This document shows, in pieces, positions 12,760 to 64,000 of a DNA stretch of 64,000 nucleotides. A program made the position numbers and the translations under genes. Positions within the stretch are counted from its first letter, which is position 1. Every line of letters begins with the position of its first letter. Below the pieces are notes generated by a model that worked only from the letters and a program-made list of their open reading frames with translations, did not search any database and was not told where the DNA came from. The stretch is from the NCBI RefSeq assembly GCF_045037415.1, contig NZ_CP173438.1, one strand, 5' to 3'. This DNA is from Escherichia coli (lineage in GTDB: Bacteria; Pseudomonadota; Gammaproteobacteria; Enterobacterales; Enterobacteriaceae).

Positions 12760-15657
12760 TCACACCGAACGCGATTCAGGAGGAACTGTTTGGTAAATAG
12801 CACCACCGGATCTTGGGGGCGCTGTGATTATTACAGTATTGCTATCACCGTCATTTTTGAATGTCACTTTACCAGTAGCATCAACGCCTACCCAGGAGGC
12901 CGAGCTTGAAAACGAATAATCAGCCGCCGTTTTTCCTGGTGCAAAGTTGTCATTATTCAACTGATAATACGCCCCGGTAAATCCCTGCGAAGGGAATGAA
13001 GCTGTCGGTAGGTTTGCACTATTCACTGACACTGTACCCGTCATTGGTCTGGTTTCCGCGCTAATGAATTCTATCGTGGTACTCAGACCCGCCTGATGAA
13101 CACCATTCAATACGGGGATCAGCGTTGCGATACCCTCTCCGCCTCCTGTAACAGTAGCTTTGTAATCACCGTTGATATTTTGACTGTAATCAATTGCGCT
13201 AATTTTCATATAGGGCACGTTTGTACCTGATTGCACAAATTCTATCCCTTAAGAAACTTTGATCGGATTGCCTGATATATCGTGCAGAACAAGATGTAGC
13301 TCAGCACTATCGGTAAAGTCCCCTTTCAGTGATGACTGGTTGTTCTTAAGGATGGACTGCGAGGCGTCTGCTGGGCCTGCCACTAGCGATATATCTACTG
13401 TTTGCATTCCACCTGCGCTTATGACTGCGCTTACAGTGACGCTCCCTGTTATCGCTCATCTCACGTTTGTTGTCGCGATTCCGTTTTGATCGGTCACGGC
13501 TGTTAATGACGTTAATGTGGTGGAGCCGCTTTTTAAGGCGAAGTACACAGTGAGACCTTCGATCAGGTTACCACTGCCATCCTCAACCGTTGCCTTTAAG
13601 GTACTTAAATCACTGTTGGTGGCGGCGATAGTCGACGGATCAGCGATAAAGCTAGCAACATGTGCGGTGCTTGGGTTGCCAGTAACCTTCACGGTTGTCT
13701 GTGTCTGTATTGTGACGCCGTTATGGAACGATGCAGTCACCGTATATGTACCGACTTTATTGCTGGTCAGAACGACTGGAGCCTGATCTGAAGAGTTGGT
13801 TCTCACTTTTCCGCCACTTAACGTCGCACCTTCTAGCGTTACGCTAAAGTTGATGACCTGACCCTCCACTGGAGTGCCATTTGCAGAGGTTAGCGTTGCC
13901 GTCAGAGTAGCGCCTTTAGGAGCATTGACACCGATAAGCGGACTGGACGTGAGTGTCAGTTTTTCATCAATAGCCTCCAGTTGTTTCTCAAGTGAAGCTC
14001 CATTCGCTAGGGATGCTTTTACAGTATACGAGCCGTTTCTTTCAGACGTCATGGTGACCTCGGCTACTCCCTGCGTATTAGTAGAGACCGTGTTCTGGCT
14101 GATGATCATTTGCGAGGATGGCGCTGCACTGAATGTCGCGGGTTGATGCGTCACCGGGTTGCCAAACTGGTCGTTAACGTGAGCTTTAACTGCTATGTCT
14201 TGTGCGACCATGACCTGACCTTCAGGTATCTCCTGACTGGTAATCGTCGCAGAATTAACATCTACCTTGGCATTCAGTAATCGCGAGATGACTTCAGTAG
14301 GTTTATCTGCCAGAGAGGCTGAAACTGTTTTTAGTCCGACCTCGGTGCTTGTCACAAGAATTTCAGCAAAAACCTGATCATCCGTTTCAACGCTGGTGCT
14401 GCTTAGCGTGACGGAGGTTCCACGGAAATTAACTTTTATACCTTCTACTGGGTTGCCGTTTCCATCAGTCACTGTTGCTTGTAGCCTGGTCATTCCAATG
14501 TTATTGGCGATGAAATTGTCCTCGGTAACGTTAAGATTAACCTGCGCAGTGAGCGTATCCGCAGTAAAGTTCACCACCAACTGCTCACTCTTACCGCCAA
14601 CCATCGATGCTGTCACGGTATGAGCGCCTGCTTTTGTACCTTTCAGCGTGACTTTCGCTTTGCCATCGGCATCAGTAACCGCTTTGTCGCCATCGCTCAG
14701 CGTGAAGTTCGCCTTCACATCTTCCGGTAGAGTAAATGTTACCTCAGTGTTGGCTATCGCATTGCCCTCTGTATCAGCGACGGTGCTGTTAGTGTCGTGA
14801 GATCGTTATTGTCGGCAATCACCGGATCCTTCGAGGCTGCCAGCGTGATTTCAGCATTCGTGACGTTCGGCACATAGTTCACTGTTTGTTGCATCGAATC
14901 GCCATTTTCGAGGGTTGCCGTCACGGGAGTTCTTCAGGCTGAAATCTTCATCCACGCCCAGCGTGATTCTTGCGGTACCGAAGCGGCTTAACCAGTCTGT
15001 CATTACCCCTGAAGCCTGAGAAGAGGCCCATCCACGTGCTATGTTTGCCGCTTGCTCGCTGTTCATATCTTCGGCGAGCAGAGATCCAATTAGCTGTGAA
15101 GTACTGGCTATCTGTTGCTCAAGGTTGCCACTGCTGTTACCCGGCGGCGGGGTTAAATTTTTTTCACTAACTTGTGCCTGGACATCCAGTTCATCACCCG
15201 GGCGGACATTACGAACAAACGTACGAAACTGGTTGAGTTTGCGTAACAGGGGGGTATCTATAATTTGTTGCACAGGACAAATATATCTGGCTTCTGTACA
15301 GAGTCTTAAATTTTGACCATAAATAAAACCGTCACTGTCAAGCATGCATAGTTTATCAAGTAGGTCTCCCACAAACTGCCTGAATTTTATTTTTCCATTA
15401 AAAGTTTGTATCTTCTTAAGTATCACAGGAGACTGGAAATAGATCGATAGTAGGATGTTGCCACTCAAGGCATGACGATAAATATCGCTAGGAGTAATTT
15501 TTTGTTTTATGGCTTTGGTAGTGATCTCAACTGCTTCCGTTATAGTGACCCATGTTGACATATAATGAGTTATAAGCAATGGCTGATATTTTTTTGACAT
15601 AATATTATCTCCTTCTACACAACAATTCGTTCCGTTAAGGAAAAAGATTGGTGTCAC
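12760..15657 (-). pseudogene. yeeJ: yeeJ-like inverse autotransporter adhesin remnant: large internal deletion plus frame breaks
   Basis: Three consecutive minus-strand ORFs (14851-15657, 13456-14718, 12760-13236) carry LysM-like N-terminal and Big-repeat C-terminal segments in different frames; total about 2.9 kb versus about 7 kb recalled for intact yeeJ. Confidence 0.65.
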
Positions 15658-45273: not shown

Positions 45274-46536
45274 CTATGGGATAAACTTATTTTTACCAAT
45301 TGTATAAGGCGGTGCATAAGATTCTCGGCATGCTTCCAGATAATCCGACCACCACTGCATCATCGCTTTGCGGGCTTCCAGGTGCTCTGCCTTATGAATA
45401 TAAGCCATGCGCACGGTATTGCGCTCCTGATGACTCATCTGGCGTTCTACTGCGTCCTTTGCCCATAAACCCGATTCCATCAGCGCACTGCATGCCATTG
45501 CCCGGAAGCCGTGACCGCAGATATCCTTTTTCGTGTCGTAACCCATCACCCGCAGTGCCTTATTGACCGTGTTTTCACACATTGGCTTATACGGGTTATG
45601 GTCGCCGGGGAAGATCAGTTCATTATTACCGGTGATATCCTTAATCTGTTTCAGAATGGCGATGGACTGTTCTGAGAGGGGGACGATATGCGGCATTCGC
45701 ATTTTTGCCCCGCGGCCGGAATAACGCACGCCAATAATGGGTTCTCGCGTCGCGGGTATCGTCCAGACTCGGTTTGTGAAATCAATCTCTGACCAGCGGG
45801 CGAAACGCAGTTCACTGGAGCGAATGAACACATGCAGCATCAGCAGAACGGCATGCCGGGTCAGTTCACGGCCCTGATGATATGCCCCAATACGTTCAAG
45901 CAGTTCAGGCAGCCGCTCCAGCGGCAGGGCAGGATAGTGCCGTCTGACAGGAGGTGTGGTCACGCCGCCAAGGTTTGCTGCAGGGTTCGTATCGATTAAC
46001 TCCTGATGGACCGCATGGCGCATTATGTTACTCAGGTGCTGCCGTGTGCGGGACGCAACCTCCAGCAGACCTTTTTCCTCGATCCCTTTCAGCAGGTCAA
46101 TGAAATGACGGGGTTTAAGTTCTGATACAGGTAGGTTCCCGATGACCGGAAAGATGTGATTGTTCAGGCTGGCAAGCAGACGGTCGGCGGTGTTCTGCGA
46201 CCATTTCCTGTTACTTTTATGCCACGCCAGCGCCACGTTTTTAAAAACTTTCTCCGGTGTTCGTGAGCCACGTACAGCAGCCCGCTGCTGTACCGGGTTG
46301 ATATTCAGCGCCAGCATTTTACGGATACCTTCACGTTGCTGTCGCGCATCAGACAGGGAGATGGCTGGATAGGTACCCAGCGCAATGCGGGATTCTTTAC
46401 CGCTAATACGGTATTTGAGATACCAGTGGCGGGAGCCACCCGGCTTGACCCGCAGATACAGACCGTGAGAATCGGAGACTTTAAAGGGTTTATCAGAAGG
46501 CTTGAGGGTGCGGATTTTTGCGCTGGTAAGGGACAT
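45274..46536 (-). CDS. int: P4-type tyrosine integrase of the HPI
   Basis: 420-aa ORF (MSLTSAKIRTLKPSDKPFKVSDSHGLYLRV...) with tyrosine-recombinase C-terminal domain, adjacent to tRNA-Asn. Confidence 0.85.
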   Translation of the reverse strand: MSLTSAKIRTLKPSDKPFKVSDSHGLYLRVKPGGSRHWYLKYRISGKESRIALGTYPAISLSDARQQREGIRKMLALNINPVQQRAAVRGSRTPEKVFKNVALAWHKSNRKWSQNTADRLLASLNNHIFPVIGNLPVSELKPRHFIDLLKGIEEKGLLEVASRTRQHLSNIMRHAVHQELIDTNPAANLGGVTTPPVRRHYPALPLERLPELLERIGAYHQGRELTRHAVLLMLHVFIRSSELRFARWSEIDFTNRVWTIPATREPIIGVRYSGRGAKMRMPHIVPLSEQSIAILKQIKDITGNNELIFPGDHNPYKPMCENTVNKALRVMGYDTKKDICGHGFRAMACSALMESGLWAKDAVERQMSHQERNTVRMAYIHKAEHLEARKAMMQWWSDYLEACRESYAPPYTIGKNKFIP

Positions 46537-46697
46537 ATGGGGGTCACTCCATTATCGAACTAACCTGACCCCAGATTTGACCACCAATTTTTCCCGATGC
46601 GTAGGGTAAAATCAAAATGCACTGAGAAGAGTTTTCACACTAACCTGTTGAATCAACATCAGATAAAGATTCGCAAGGATGCATGAAAACAGAAAAT

Positions 46698-46773
46698 TGG
46701 CTCCTCTGACTGGACTCGAACCAGTGACATACGGATTAACAGTCCGCCGTTCTACCGACTGAACTACAGAGGA
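46698..46773 (-). tRNA. asnT: tRNA-Asn (GUU); HPI attachment tRNA
   Basis: Fourth copy of the 76-nt tRNA-Asn sequence, about 160 bp from the island integrase gene. Confidence 0.9.
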
Positions 46774-46873
46774 ATCGTGAGAACGGGGCGCATATTACTT
46801 AGCGGTACCTTGTCTGTCAACACTAAATTTCATAAGCCATTTCAATTGGTTAATTAATCTGCAAAGTTGTTAA

Positions 46874-47764: not shown

Positions 47765-47855
47765 GGAGAGATGCCGGAGCGGCTGAACGGACCGGTTCTC
47801 GAAAACCGGAGTGGGGGCAACTCCACCGGGGGTTCAAATCCCCCTCTCTCCGCCA
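47765..47855 (+). tRNA. serU: tRNA-Ser, long variable arm (serU-like)
   Basis: About 91 nt, ggagagatgccggagcggctgaacgg...ggttcaaatccccctctctccgcca; acceptor stem pairs and ends in CCA; integrase immediately downstream. Confidence 0.85.
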
Positions 47856-47907
47856 AAATTCAATCACTTACACATCATTAAGTCAGTGACAAAAATCACA
47901 CTTGGAA

Positions 47908-48933
47908 TTACTTGGAATATTTTCTTGGAATATTTTCAGGTAACGGGACATCAAGTGTTGGTGAAACTTTAACCTTCCTGTCATAGATTAGCACTTGCCC
48001 CTCGGTTTTGTGACCAGAGAAAAGTTGCTTATCCCGGCTGCTTCCTTCATAGTCTGAAATTCCTTTCGCCTTCAGATCATGAAAGGTGAAGTCGGTTAAA
48101 ATACCTGAAATTTTGCCTGCGCGATTTCTTGCTTCTACCCACATTTCGTTAAAGCCTTTGTACATATATCGGTTGCCATATTGATTGCTGATTACATAGA
48201 CGGATGCTGGTAACTGTTTTGCTTTTTCGATCGCCGCCTGTAATCGTGGACTCCATGCTTTTATCTGTTTTTTCCCTGTTTTCCCTTGCTGGATAAAGAT
48301 CCCGTCGTTTCCAATCTGCTCCCATTTCAGTGATAACACATCGGAAACCCTCGCTGCACACAGATAGGCAATTTCCATTGCGATAAAAACAGGAAGAGGT
48401 GCAACGCTTAATACTGCCTGGTATTCTTTGTCGGTTACATATCGTTCGCGGTTTTTGGCCTTGAATTTACTTACACCTGCACATGGGTTAGCCTTCACGT
48501 ACCCTCGCTCATATCCCCAACTGTAAACGCGGGACATACTGCTTTTTTCATGGTTGGCTTGCGTTTTGCTCTGTTCCCCTCTTTTGTCCATGTATCGACG
48601 GATGTGTTCTGGTTTTATGGAATCCGCTGGTACCTTACCGAATACGGCAAGCAACTTTTTTTGATGTTGCAGATAATCTTTTTGTGTTCTTGGGCTAAGG
48701 TCACTGTAACAGGCGCTGGCGAGGAATTTTTCCCACAAGCGACCGAATGTCATTGCACGATCGCGATTATTTACAGTTTCCTCATACTTTTTCCATAAAG
48801 CAGCTAAACCATCCTTGATGGCGGTTAGTGTTACAGATTCTCTGGATGTTGGTTTCCATACATAACTATATTTATTTGGGTATACATTTGGAGGTAATTT
48901 TTCGTGTTCAGGATTTTTCCTTCGTCTTCCCAT
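47908..48933 (-). CDS. int: Phage tyrosine integrase
   Basis: 341-aa ORF directly next to the tRNA-Ser 3' end, with tyrosine-recombinase C-terminal region. Confidence 0.85.
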   Translation of the reverse strand: MGRRRKNPEHEKLPPNVYPNKYSYVWKPTSRESVTLTAIKDGLAALWKKYEETVNNRDRAMTFGRLWEKFLASACYSDLSPRTQKDYLQHQKKLLAVFGKVPADSIKPEHIRRYMDKRGEQSKTQANHEKSSMSRVYSWGYERGYVKANPCAGVSKFKAKNRERYVTDKEYQAVLSVAPLPVFIAMEIAYLCAARVSDVLSLKWEQIGNDGIFIQQGKTGKKQIKAWSPRLQAAIEKAKQLPASVYVISNQYGNRYMYKGFNEMWVEARNRAGKISGILTDFTFHDLKAKGISDYEGSSRDKQLFSGHKTEGQVLIYDRKVKVSPTLDVPLPENIPRKYSK

Positions 48934-61781: not shown

Positions 61782-62774
61782 GTGCGGGTATTACTTCGAC
61801 CTGTTCTGGTACCGGAACTCGGGCTGGTGATCGTTAAGCCGGGCCGTGAATCCATGCCGGTATTCCACAATACCCGGGTACTGGTGGAGCCGGAACCGAA
61901 AAGCATGCGTAATCTGCCGTCCGGGGTCGTTCCTGCCGTTCGCCAGCCGCTGGCGGAGGATAAATCATTACTGCCATTTTTCAGCGACGAACGAGTGATT
62001 CGTGCTGCTGGTGGCGCTGGCGCATTGTCTGACTGGTTACTGCGCCATGTTAAATCCTGCCAGTGGCCGCACGGCGATTATCACCACAGTGAAACCGTCA
62101 TTCACCGTTATGGTGCCGGCGCAATGGTGTTGTGCTGGCACTGCGATAACCAGCTGCGCGATCAGTTCACGGAACGGCTGGAATCAATGGCAACGGATAA
62201 CTGTGCCCGCTGGGTGTTGTCTGTTGTGCGTCGGGATCTCGGTTTTGATGATAGTCACGTTGTGACAATGCCGGAACTGTGCTGGTGGCTGATTCGTAAT
62301 GACCTGGCGGATGCCTTACCGGAAAGTGCAGCCCGTAAGGCACTGAGATTACCGAAGCCTGTTGTGCCATCTGTCACCCGGGAAAGTGACCTTGTGCCTT
62401 CAGTTCCTGCCACCAGCATCATCCAGGATAAAGCGAAAAAGGTGCTGGTACTGAAAGTGGATCCGGAGTCGCCGGAGTCTTTTATGTTACGCCCAAAACG
62501 TCGCCGCTGGGTTAATGAAAAGTACACGCGCTGGGTTAAGACGCAGCCGTGCGCATGTTGTGGAAAGCCTGCTGATGATGCCCACCACCTGATAGGTCAC
62601 GGTCAGGGTGGAATGGGTACAAAAGCGCATGACCTCTTTGTGTTGCCTTTGTGCAGAAAGCATCACGACGAGCTGCATGCGGATACCGTGGTATTTGAAG
62701 AGAAGTATGGCTCCCAGTTGGAGCTGATATTTCGTTTTATTGATCGTGCGCTGGCAATTGGCGTGCTGGCGTAA
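61782..62774 (+). CDS. DUF968-family prophage protein (YdfU-like)
   Basis: 330-aa ORF with a C-terminal Cys/His-rich segment (CACCGKPADDAHHL...CRKHHDELH); position upstream of the Q-like gene as ydfU is in Qin. Confidence 0.55.
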   Translation: MRVLLRPVLVPELGLVIVKPGRESMPVFHNTRVLVEPEPKSMRNLPSGVVPAVRQPLAEDKSLLPFFSDERVIRAAGGAGALSDWLLRHVKSCQWPHGDYHHSETVIHRYGAGAMVLCWHCDNQLRDQFTERLESMATDNCARWVLSVVRRDLGFDDSHVVTMPELCWWLIRNDLADALPESAARKALRLPKPVVPSVTRESDLVPSVPATSIIQDKAKKVLVLKVDPESPESFMLRPKRRRWVNEKYTRWVKTQPCACCGKPADDAHHLIGHGQGGMGTKAHDLFVLPLCRKHHDELHADTVVFEEKYGSQLELIFRFIDRALAIGVLA

Positions 62775-62788
62775 GTGGAGAACTCTAA

Positions 62789-63367
62789 ATGATTAATCCT
62801 TCTGAAATTGGCAAAACGGGTGAAATGGTTCGTCTTCGTACTCTGGAAAGTATCTGGGTTCAGGGGAAGCTCCGCATGTGGGGGCGTTGGTCTTATATCA
62901 GTGGAGGGACTAGCGGTAACATGTTTAACCAACTGCTTGTATCCAGCAAAATTACCAAAACTGCAATCAACGATGCGCTGCGCCGTATGAAAAAGTCAGG
63001 CATTACGAAACCAGAGCTCGAAGCTTATTTGCGCGAAATACTCAACAGTAAAAACAAAAGTAGTCTGGCGTTTTGCTCGGACGATGAAGGCCTGAAGATT
63101 GACGGTGTGATCGCCTCGGTGCTGATGAATAATGATTACCGTTCTCTATACGGTGTGATTGTTGGCCGGTATTGTCTGCGTAAGAGCAAGTTGCAAATGG
63201 CCAATGAGCTTCATATTAAACATCCTGACTGGGCGCTCATTACCTGTCGCCGCCGAGTTGACACATGGATAAGTTTGGCCGAATCGCTCCTGTACGCTCC
63301 ACTATGTGATGCGTTTGGCACAAATAGCGACAGATTTAAATTGCAAAGTGAGCAAGAAAGTGCTTGA
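62789..63367 (+). CDS. Putative late-gene antiterminator Q
   Basis: 192-aa ORF with the ...LRMWGRW... segment recalled from Q-family antiterminators; followed by a promoter-like region and a strong terminator as expected for qut/tR'. Confidence 0.5.
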   Translation: MINPSEIGKTGEMVRLRTLESIWVQGKLRMWGRWSYISGGTSGNMFNQLLVSSKITKTAINDALRRMKKSGITKPELEAYLREILNSKNKSSLAFCSDDEGLKIDGVIASVLMNNDYRSLYGVIVGRYCLRKSKLQMANELHIKHPDWALITCRRRVDTWISLAESLLYAPLCDAFGTNSDRFKLQSEQESA

Positions 63368-63418
63368 ATTGTGATAAGCTCGGGACGAAAAGCGAACTGA
63401 GCAACATAATAGTAAGAA

Positions 63419-63441
63419 CCCGCCATTGTGCGGGTTTTTGC
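63419..63441 (+). terminator. Rho-independent terminator (tR'-like) downstream of Q
   Basis: Hairpin acccgccattgtgcgggt followed by ttttt. Confidence 0.5.
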
Positions 63442-63506
63442 GTTTAGGAAAGGCTTGCCAAAAAGAATGATGTTATAGTTTTCGAAAAAAATGCAGGAGA
63501 ATAAAA

Positions 63507-64000
63507 ATGCTCTGTGGAGGTCTTTCTTTGCGAGACTTTATGCATAAACTGCATAAAGTTTTGCGACCAACGGGTCCAGTTGTTTCTATGGAACTGTTAT
63601 TTGGACGTGAAAAACATGTAACCGATCTCGAATTGGCGCTTTATGCTACAGGTCGGCATGCTTTCATTTATGGTGATCGCGGAGTAGGAAAGACATCCTT
63701 AGCGCAAACTGTTGCTTTTAAGCTGCAGGAAGATGCTGAACCTATTTTGGTTGGCTGCGAGAAAGAATCCACTTTTTCAAGTGTCATGAATGACATTATT
63801 TTGCGAGGCACACCTCAGGATAAGAAAATCGATACACAGGGATGGAGCTTTGGCTTAAATGTGGCTGGAATTGGTGGTATCAATGCTGGTCAAAATCAAA
63901 AATATAATTATCCAGAACTGAAAATTGACTCAGTTTCTGCAGCCGTTCGGGCGTTGCAATTTTTAACTAAAGTTCACTCAAAGATTCCTTATATAGTTAT
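63507..64000 (+). CDS. P-loop NTPase (AAA-type ATP-binding protein), N-terminal part; truncated by the window end
   Basis: ATG at 63507 preceded by AGGAGA; Walker A GDRGVGKTS; no stop before the window end; not in the ORF track. Confidence 0.6.
   Translation, partial: MLCGGLSLRDFMHKLHKVLRPTGPVVSMELLFGREKHVTDLELALYATGRHAFIYGDRGVGKTSLAQTVAFKLQEDAEPILVGCEKESTFSSVMNDIILRGTPQDKKIDTQGWSFGLNVAGIGGINAGQNQKYNYPELKIDSVSAAVRALQFLTKVHSKIPYIV

Follow-up and report, generated by a model that had tools for sequence, protein, structure and literature searches.

What is a gene for a solitary ATPase doing between the antiterminator and the lysis genes of a lambdoid prophage? The question is raised by the right end of a 64,000-nucleotide stretch of Escherichia coli DNA (contig NZ_CP173438.1 of assembly GCF_045037415.1; this whole stretch is called the window in what follows), where a gene for a P-loop ATPase begins downstream of a Q-like gene and runs off the edge. 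A first-pass annotation, made from the letters of the window, had regarded the gene as accessory cargo and as a candidate defence or abortive-infection component whose partner might lie beyond the window. The analysis described here identifies its product as a conserved, intact and solo AAA+ ATPase of ORC/Cdc6-like build, whose gene is an optional component of prophages, plasmids and islands and in many cases stands beside defence genes. On the strength of this genomic context we lean, with somewhat better than even confidence, towards reading the ATPase as a one-protein anti-phage or superinfection-exclusion factor that would protect the lysogen, or the carrier element, against other phages.

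The part of the gene inside the window comprises the first 164 codons (63507-64000, + strand, as are all the features of this region given below), which were assigned by translation and by matches to phrog_6841 and Pfam AAA_16. Its start codon is the ATG at 63507-63509, the position at which the homologues also start, and the frame read from there gives MLCGGLSLRDFMHKLHKVL...GDRGVGKTS up to the window edge, where the open reading frame is cut right before the Walker B motif (VIDEFD). The first-pass annotation had correctly recognised a gene with its own ribosome-binding site, but had implied a start one base away, at 63508, in a frame that is riddled with stops. A Shine-Dalgarno sequence, AGGAG, can be read at 63495-63499, 7 nt before the ATG. 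The full gene was read in E. coli THO-003 (locus L001), a strain with 3 mismatches to the final 13,212 bases of the window; the tail of the window is also 100% identical to about 53 complete E. coli genomes, one of which is named O25b:H4-ST131. The gene comprises 463 codons (L001 12719-14110; WP_021562676.1, annotated as 'ATP-binding protein') and would end at the equivalent of window position 64898.

Extension of the locus in the downstream direction led into lysis genes. The order that follows the ATPase in THO-003 is a lambda-family holin, a GH24 lysozyme, Rz, a DUF2441 gene, an HNH gene and a P27-type terminase. Because holin, lysozyme and Rz directly follow the ATPase, it constitutes a single-gene unit with no partner gene, and the partner once expected outside the window is not there. 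A locus running straight into lysis genes with no associated effector had been held to speak against a defence role. This is the arrangement found, but the clause is too strict because single-gene defence systems exist. The solo condition extends to the rest of the family. Across 78 species-level loci no conserved neighbour was found, and an all-against-all BLAST comparison of 31 same-strand downstream neighbours revealed no similar pairs at E < 0.01, which rules out a fast-evolving downstream partner. The recurrent neighbours are limited to serine recombinases (12 loci), three groups of tyrosine integrases (7, 4 and 4 loci), an S24 repressor and a ribonucleotide reductase gene. The last of these, taken as such from its sequence and about 1230 aa long, is located directly upstream of the family gene in three alphaproteobacterial genomes (L029 3324-6962, L058 110-3814 and L059 3022-6945), suggesting a shared chromosomal insertion site at its flank.

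In the E. coli prophage, the ATPase gene represents a moron, an optional unit of promoter (here putative), gene and terminator inserted between Q and the lysis genes. It displays presence/absence polymorphism, a deviant guanine+cytosine (GC) content and hairpins on both sides. The gene has a GC content of 39.8% against 49.7% for the locus, and along its length the value drops to 37-41%, compared with 46-57% on each flank. In a survey of 5426 E. coli genomes, a 2.6-kb query reaching from Q through the ATPase to the holin gene was covered in full in only 55 of them, whereas the holin end was present in about 1457. The right homology breakpoint falls at L001 14147, 37 nt past the ATPase stop and inside the terminator hairpin that follows the gene (-16 kcal/mol). 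The alternative cargo was found in three syntenic prophages (L093-L095), in which the order is DUF968, antiterminator, slot, holin, lysozyme, spanin, HNH and terminase, and in which the slot holds a 65-aa open reading frame and a 350-aa orphan DNA methyltransferase (L093 2586-3982, and the same positions in L094 and L095). The reading of the first-pass annotation that the gene is cargo of the Q-to-lysis slot, with its own ribosome-binding site and behind a tR'-like terminator, agrees with these results, and variation among otherwise syntenic prophages, which it had named as a check, is observed.

In its genomic logic, this arrangement resembles lambda RexAB and the stx morons, which are likewise optional, AT-rich and terminator-flanked inserts; the likeness is one of position, with no kinship in sequence or fold. 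In those phages rexAB lies downstream of cI, and stx lies between Q and S.

The family to which the ATPase belongs is large and evolves under constraint. A family profile search of 1.84 billion representative proteins gave 967 clusters at E <= 1e-30 and 2705 at E <= 1e-10. Nearly all of the best 150 relatives are 410-470 aa long or are shorter fragments, and no fused domains were found among them. A copy from Enterobacter sp. kpr-6, with 91% amino-acid and 78.5% nucleotide identity, occupies the same slot, in the order NinB, RusA, Q-like (phrog_753), ATPase, endolysin and Rz. Between the two copies the proportion of nonsynonymous differences (pN) is 0.054 and that of synonymous differences (pS) is 0.78, a saturated value, which gives a pN/pS of 0.07; this ratio is reported in place of the synonymous substitution rate (dS) because synonymous sites are saturated. 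Since pN is low against a saturated pS and the Enterobacter copy sits in the same slot, the ATPase is, as judged from sequence comparison, under strong purifying selection, and it is a long-standing resident of this phage module. These results bear on the idea of a passenger, in which a prophage with a frameshifted integrase would be carrying along the remnant of an ATPase gene that is decaying or has no function. The state of the integrase and the restriction of the gene to 55 near-identical E. coli genomes would fit such a passenger. Against it, the 463-codon reading frame is intact, the catalytic motifs are all invariant, pN/pS is as low as stated with synonymous sites saturated, and about 1000 diverged clusters hold the same length, and it is regarded as highly improbable.

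The argument for a role in defence comes from the genomic context, and in particular from the places where homologues are found. In a prophage of Edwardsiella ictaluri, the homologue is located downstream of a cI-like repressor and a PDC-M66A/B pair and before xis and int, a rexAB-like position. This pair, a HipA_2 and a DUF3037 gene that match a PADLOC candidate system (L002 5570-7122), forms with the homologue a small accessory cluster after the repressor gene. The homologue of an Erwinia prophage comes directly after int, at the prophage edge, and that of a Vibrio parahaemolyticus prophage is preceded by DUF968 and followed by variable cargo and the lysis genes. In Pseudomonas, the homologue adjoins Gabija (GajA E = 0, GajB 1e-211) and PDC-S28, and in Pectobacterium it is part of an integrative element that carries PDC-S26. 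Further loci place it beside an Avs4-like STAND protein, a type IIG restriction-methylase, Septu PtuA or a type IV Mrr enzyme, and at one locus it is near an AbiJ-domain gene. The only sequenced phages with a match were mycobacteriophage Kevin1, through gp30, and Gordonia phage Cashline, through gp34. The Kevin1 protein is a true member of the family (hhalign 99.9%, 357 aligned columns) and is encoded on the repressor/integrase strand, in the central variable region of cluster N, for which prophage-mediated defence is known; its describers called it an orpham possibly relevant to prophage-mediated defence (PMC6544188). Its gene directly follows that of a HicB-like antitoxin, gp31, which is encoded on this strand too (L009 5545-7200), and both are orphams of the cluster N variable region.

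The same survey of locations also provides the evidence for a second explanation, according to which the ATPase is a counter-defence or inter-element competition factor benefiting the phage or plasmid. Such a factor would be produced either late, from the transcript antiterminated by Q, or early, when a plasmid enters, and could act, for example, by binding host immune or restriction proteins or stripping them from DNA. The gene lies downstream of Q and of a tR'-like terminator and would be read through during lytic growth, and the slot that it occupies is filled by an orphan DNA methyltransferase in syntenic prophages. Homologues are carried by 80 plasmid records, of which 63 are from Yersinia. 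The full-length homologue of Y. pestis CO92 pMT1 (44% identity; L100 8001-9392, NC_003134.1 66212-67603) lies between parA-parB, which it directly follows, and a DNA methylase, a DUF1380 gene and ArdA just downstream. However, many homologues reside in chromosomal islands beside Gabija, Septu and restriction genes, where anti-defence is not expected, the Edwardsiella and Kevin1 copies are on the repressor strand, in regions expressed in lysogens, and the copy on an Enterobacter plasmid is located outside the leading region. Moreover, we know of no anti-defence protein with the fold of this ATPase. A counter-defence role is thus considered unlikely, and protection of the lysogen or carrier element is the reading retained.

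What kind of protein could carry out such a role was approached through its motifs and its predicted fold, with conservation measured in an alignment of 39 homologues. An N-terminal 'hhGRE' motif, LFGRE (residues 31-35; 63597-63611), precedes the NTPase core, and its L31, G33 and R34 are invariant. The Walker A motif noticed by the first-pass annotation, GDRGVGKTS, is confirmed at residues 56-64 (63672-63698), with G56, R58, G59, G61, K62 and S64 invariant. Also invariant or nearly so are D166, E167 and F168 of Walker B, R232, W327, R398 and G399, together with a GGHxSSxRQ motif that includes R217. By analogy with the SRC motif of ORC and clamp-loader proteins, R217 is read as a probable box VII arginine finger. 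A further motif conserved to this degree, SDGFPxYxH, contains G261-F-P263, a GxP element typical of STAND helical domains. The AlphaFold (AF2) model, with a predicted local distance difference test (pLDDT) score of 82.8 and a predicted template modelling (pTM) score of 0.76, suggests a layout of AAA+ base, helical lid and winged helix (residues about 330-407). A hand count of residues 330-410 gives about 15 K/R and 8 D/E, so that the winged helix is positively charged on balance.

Conservation is interrupted in three places, residues 91-135, helices 346-375 of the winged helix and the tail, which are the most variable stretches of the protein. The first includes an insert in the ATPase core (residues 106-134; 63822-63908) that is predicted to be disordered (pLDDT <50) and has the highest column entropy of the protein, 2.95-2.98 bits; in the model the tail is disordered as well, from residue 420. 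The protein ends about 55 residues past the winged helix. No effector or sensor domain was found, and the C-terminal third is without any Pfam match. After the disordered linker, the gammaproteobacterial subfamily keeps a C-terminal motif, Y-x-P-L-T/S-x-V/I-E, together with a predicted helix (residues about 433-450; L001 about 14015-14068); alpha- and betaproteobacterial members either lack this motif or have a divergent form of it. Its role may be to dock a partner that is encoded elsewhere.

Database searches placed the protein among P-loop ATPases and in no known family of defence proteins or of phage ATPases. In Pfam it was matched by AAA_16 (2e-9), AAA_22, ATPase_2 (4.3e-5, residues 32-187 only) and nSTAND1 (1.8e-4, residues 29-332), and in PHROGs the sole full-length match was phrog_6841, a family of unknown function (E 6e-103). 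The PHROG matches to a clamp loader, Sak4, DnaA-like proteins and terminase were partial and had E-values of 6e-5 or weaker, so that the ATPase is not a known phage packaging, replication or structural ATPase, a possibility that the first-pass annotation had named as one that would undo its proposal. Known defence families were likewise rejected: the best PADLOC match was mad8 (2.2e-4, residues 46-79 only), followed by PDC-S01 and IetA, all of them confined to the P-loop at E >= 2e-4, and the NCBIfam anti-phage models stayed far under their cut-offs (DS41_1, 15.8 vs 370; IteA, 11.6 vs 510). Beyond the P-loop, neither single-sequence nor family-profile searches found relatives of solved structure, and the viral structure library BFVD gave generic AAA+ and clamp-loader matches only. 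A literature search found no paper linking PF01637 with 'phage defense' or Cdc6-like proteins with anti-phage activity, the combination of COG1672 and 'defense' gave unrelated papers only, and the ATPase is not listed in the DefensePredictor supplements. Of the suggestion that the gene is a candidate defence component, then, the genomic associations stand and membership of a known defence family does not; an abortive-infection role has gained no support.

By structure, the closest folds are the archaeal ATPases of PF01637 and Orc1/Cdc6, and TnsC and MuB were matched as well. The top structural matches, PABY2304 (PDB 2qen) and SSO1545 (PDB 2fna), share the AAA+ base, lid and winged helix and are of similar size, whereas their identity to the ATPase is just 14-16% and the Pfam match is limited to the N-terminal half. 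Since their PDB descriptions assign no function, this likeness provides a fold and not a mechanism. The Orc1/Cdc6 initiators (PDB 1fnn, 1w5s and 2qby) share the GRE motif before Walker A, the box VII-like SSxRQ with the invariant R217, and the AAA+ base and lid with a C-terminal winged helix. Their model TIGR02928 is the best NCBIfam match (E 4.7e-9), yet it aligns to residues 29-115 and reaches 35.6 bits against a cut-off of 181.3. In contrast to the initiators, the ATPase gene has no adjoining origin repeats and is dispensable cargo, not the replication gene of its element. By sequence, the ATPase is not a member of Orc1/Cdc6.

The kinship of the fold raises a third explanation, that of a DNA-transaction or regulatory factor of mobile elements, in which an ORC/Cdc6-, TnsC-, MuB- or MalT-like ATPase would control the replication, integration-site choice, partition or transcription of the element. 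The net positive winged helix is consistent with it, integrases and serine recombinases are, as described above, the only recurrent neighbours (recombinase profiles matched in 19 of the 48 loci with full 7-kb flanks), and the pMT1 copy follows parAB. But the position of the gene in its elements varies (four prophage positions, plus islands and plasmids), with no set orientation or distance to any recombinase. The transposition ATPases TnsC, MuB and IstB stand in an operon with a cognate transposase, a context that this gene does not share. The E. coli prophage has a replication module of its own, a DnaT-like protein plus P, separate from the ATPase, and no origin-like or iteron repeats flank the gene, around which only a palindrome in the 5' coding part and chance direct repeats were detected. 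The palindrome, a perfect 12-nt sequence, TTTATGCATAAA, is held within an inverted repeat at 63530-63564 (15-nt arms, 87% complementary) that spans codons 8-19 and coincides with a peptide repeat, MHK-LHK; it may be due to chance or be a regulatory site. Most prophages that are otherwise syntenic lack the ATPase, which is therefore dispensable for the prophage life cycle. Together with the low score of TIGR02928, these observations make a role in the transactions of the element improbable.

Two groups of defence ATPases were also compared with the protein. It shares with STAND and Avs proteins the hhGRE motif, Walker A and B, the GxP element, the winged helix, the nSTAND1 match and carriage by prophages and defence islands. 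On the other hand, it lacks both an N-terminal effector and a repeat sensor of the TPR, WD40 or LRR type at its C terminus, has no PADLOC Avs match and, following sensor 1, carries an arginine of the AAA+ type, R217. Its 463 aa also make it much smaller than STAND defence proteins, which are described as large, with sensors of at least 400 aa (PMC12803255); a 2026 STAND survey from the Gao laboratory mentions prophage-encoded STAND clades. Since it has neither sensor nor effector, the ATPase is not an Avs/NLR protein. As for the ORC-like ATPases BrxC and PglY of BREX, structures of BrxC were matched only as complexes with BrxB and PglZ (9zll and 9zn5), whereas the ATPase is solo and has no PADLOC Brx or Pgl match. 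By analogy, its working would probably be most like that of an initiator- or STAND-type nucleotide switch.

On this basis a mechanism can be outlined for the anti-phage reading. In the resting state, the ATPase would be an inactive monomer. The variable insert (residues 106-134) and the basic winged helix would sense a cue derived from an infecting phage, either its DNA or a replication or packaging protein, and this would set off an oligomerisation that depends on ATP and proceeds through the box VII arginine, R217. The oligomer would then bind or coat nucleic acid and block phage replication, transcription or packaging directly, with no toxin being released. Direct obstruction is judged to be the most economical mechanism because the ATPase has no effector domain. 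We infer, along these lines, expression of the gene in the lysogen, an anti-phage activity, DNA binding and a trigger for oligomerisation. Several points weigh against an anti-phage factor. Without an effector domain, no killing or interference chemistry can be named. The position downstream of Q entails late lytic transcription too, which fits a phage-benefiting function equally well, and both the orphan methyltransferase of the same slot and the methylase and ArdA next to the pMT1 copy are anti-restriction and not defence genes. The anti-phage models of PADLOC-DB v2.0.0 and NCBIfam 20.0 gave no significant match, and no paper names WP_021562676.1, although a prior description under another name is possible. 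The tally of defence neighbours was drawn from hand-picked large neighbours with no matched genomic control. Finally, the putative promoter of the cargo gene is weak by consensus and was identified by eye only.

The question of expression in the lysogen leads to the left border of the slot. This border is formed by the Q-like antiterminator gene (62789-63367), a match to phrog_753, 'anti-termination protein Q-like' (E 6e-67), which RefSeq names a DUF1133 family protein. Within its 3' end, a promoter-like sequence, TTGGCA-16-TAAATT (63315-63342; 9/12 consensus matches), is the sole sigma-70-like match across 62700-64000. By analogy with lambda pR'/tR', it could be a late promoter (pR'-like) from which a short transcript ends at the hairpin downstream. 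The first-pass annotation had marked this tR'-like terminator at 63419-63441; the hairpin is confirmed and is slightly longer, occupying 63412-63441. It consists of a G+C-rich 12-bp stem (arms 63412-63423 and 63430-63441), a 6-nt loop and a U-run, with UUUUU at its 3' end, and folds at -19.7 kcal/mol (z = -5.2), a stability equalled by none of 200 shuffled sequences. The hairpin was also picked up by a consensus terminator scan, which found 5 terminator-like sites in the scanned region against 1.2 +/- 1.1 expected. Between the hairpin and the Shine-Dalgarno sequence, an extended -10-like element, TGtTATAGT (63471-63479), can be read by eye and could be a promoter driving the cargo gene in the lysogen. 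Since a spacing of only 13 nt separates it from the nearest -35-like hexamer, TTGCCA (63455-63460), it was missed by the consensus promoter scan.

Further features were noted in related prophages, in the carrier prophage and elsewhere in the window. In L095, the antiterminator side of the slot is swapped for two reverse-strand genes, one for a 'nucleoid-associated protein' and one hypothetical, neither of which has a PADLOC match. In THO-003, a second AT-rich insert (GC 37.8%) is found between Rz and the HNH and terminase genes (L001 15592-16200, about 1.6-2.2 kb past the window end) and encodes a DUF2441 protein (phrog_9842, of unknown function). This position represents a second cargo slot, since different small genes are located there in L093-L095. 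The prophage that carries the ATPase adjoins a tRNA-Ser (about 47,766-47,855), and its tyrosine integrase (about 47,883-48,933) is annotated in RefSeq as frameshifted, so that excision of the prophage may no longer be possible. The yersiniabactin high-pathogenicity island (about 16,250-46,540; fyuA, ybtE/T/U, irp1, irp2, ybtA and ybtPQXS) takes up nearly half of the window, and its own integrase (about 45,275-46,537) adjoins a tRNA-Asn (about 46,699-46,774). The window coordinates of the island, its integrase and this tRNA gene were taken from locus L096 and are accurate to within 2 nt.

In conclusion, the slot between Q and the holin gene is documented as an exchange site that holds either the ATPase or an orphan methyltransferase, whatever the function of the ATPase proves to be, and the ATPase is a plausible, unusually minimal candidate for NTPase-based defence borne by mobile elements. 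A broader proposal, which is put forward tentatively and regarded as doubtful, is that the family as a whole represents a widespread form of effector-less, single-protein immunity. A minimal ORC/Cdc6-like switch would recognise phage DNA or a replication or packaging intermediate and stop the phage by ATP-dependent assembly on its target, and it would be carried from Proteobacteria to mycobacteriophages by prophages, plasmids (including pMT1 of Y. pestis) and defence islands. If phage resistance proves true, the ATPase would be a one-gene system that is both very compact, at about 450 aa, and very common, with about 1000 diverged clusters. As it has no recognisable effector, a mechanism would be needed outside the scheme in which a sensor activates a nuclease, an NADase or a pore, and ATPases of the type used at replication origins would be linked to immunity. 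The finding would also provide an annotation for a gene carried by a prophage of the pandemic ST131 lineage, by Y. pestis pMT1 and by a cluster N mycobacteriophage.

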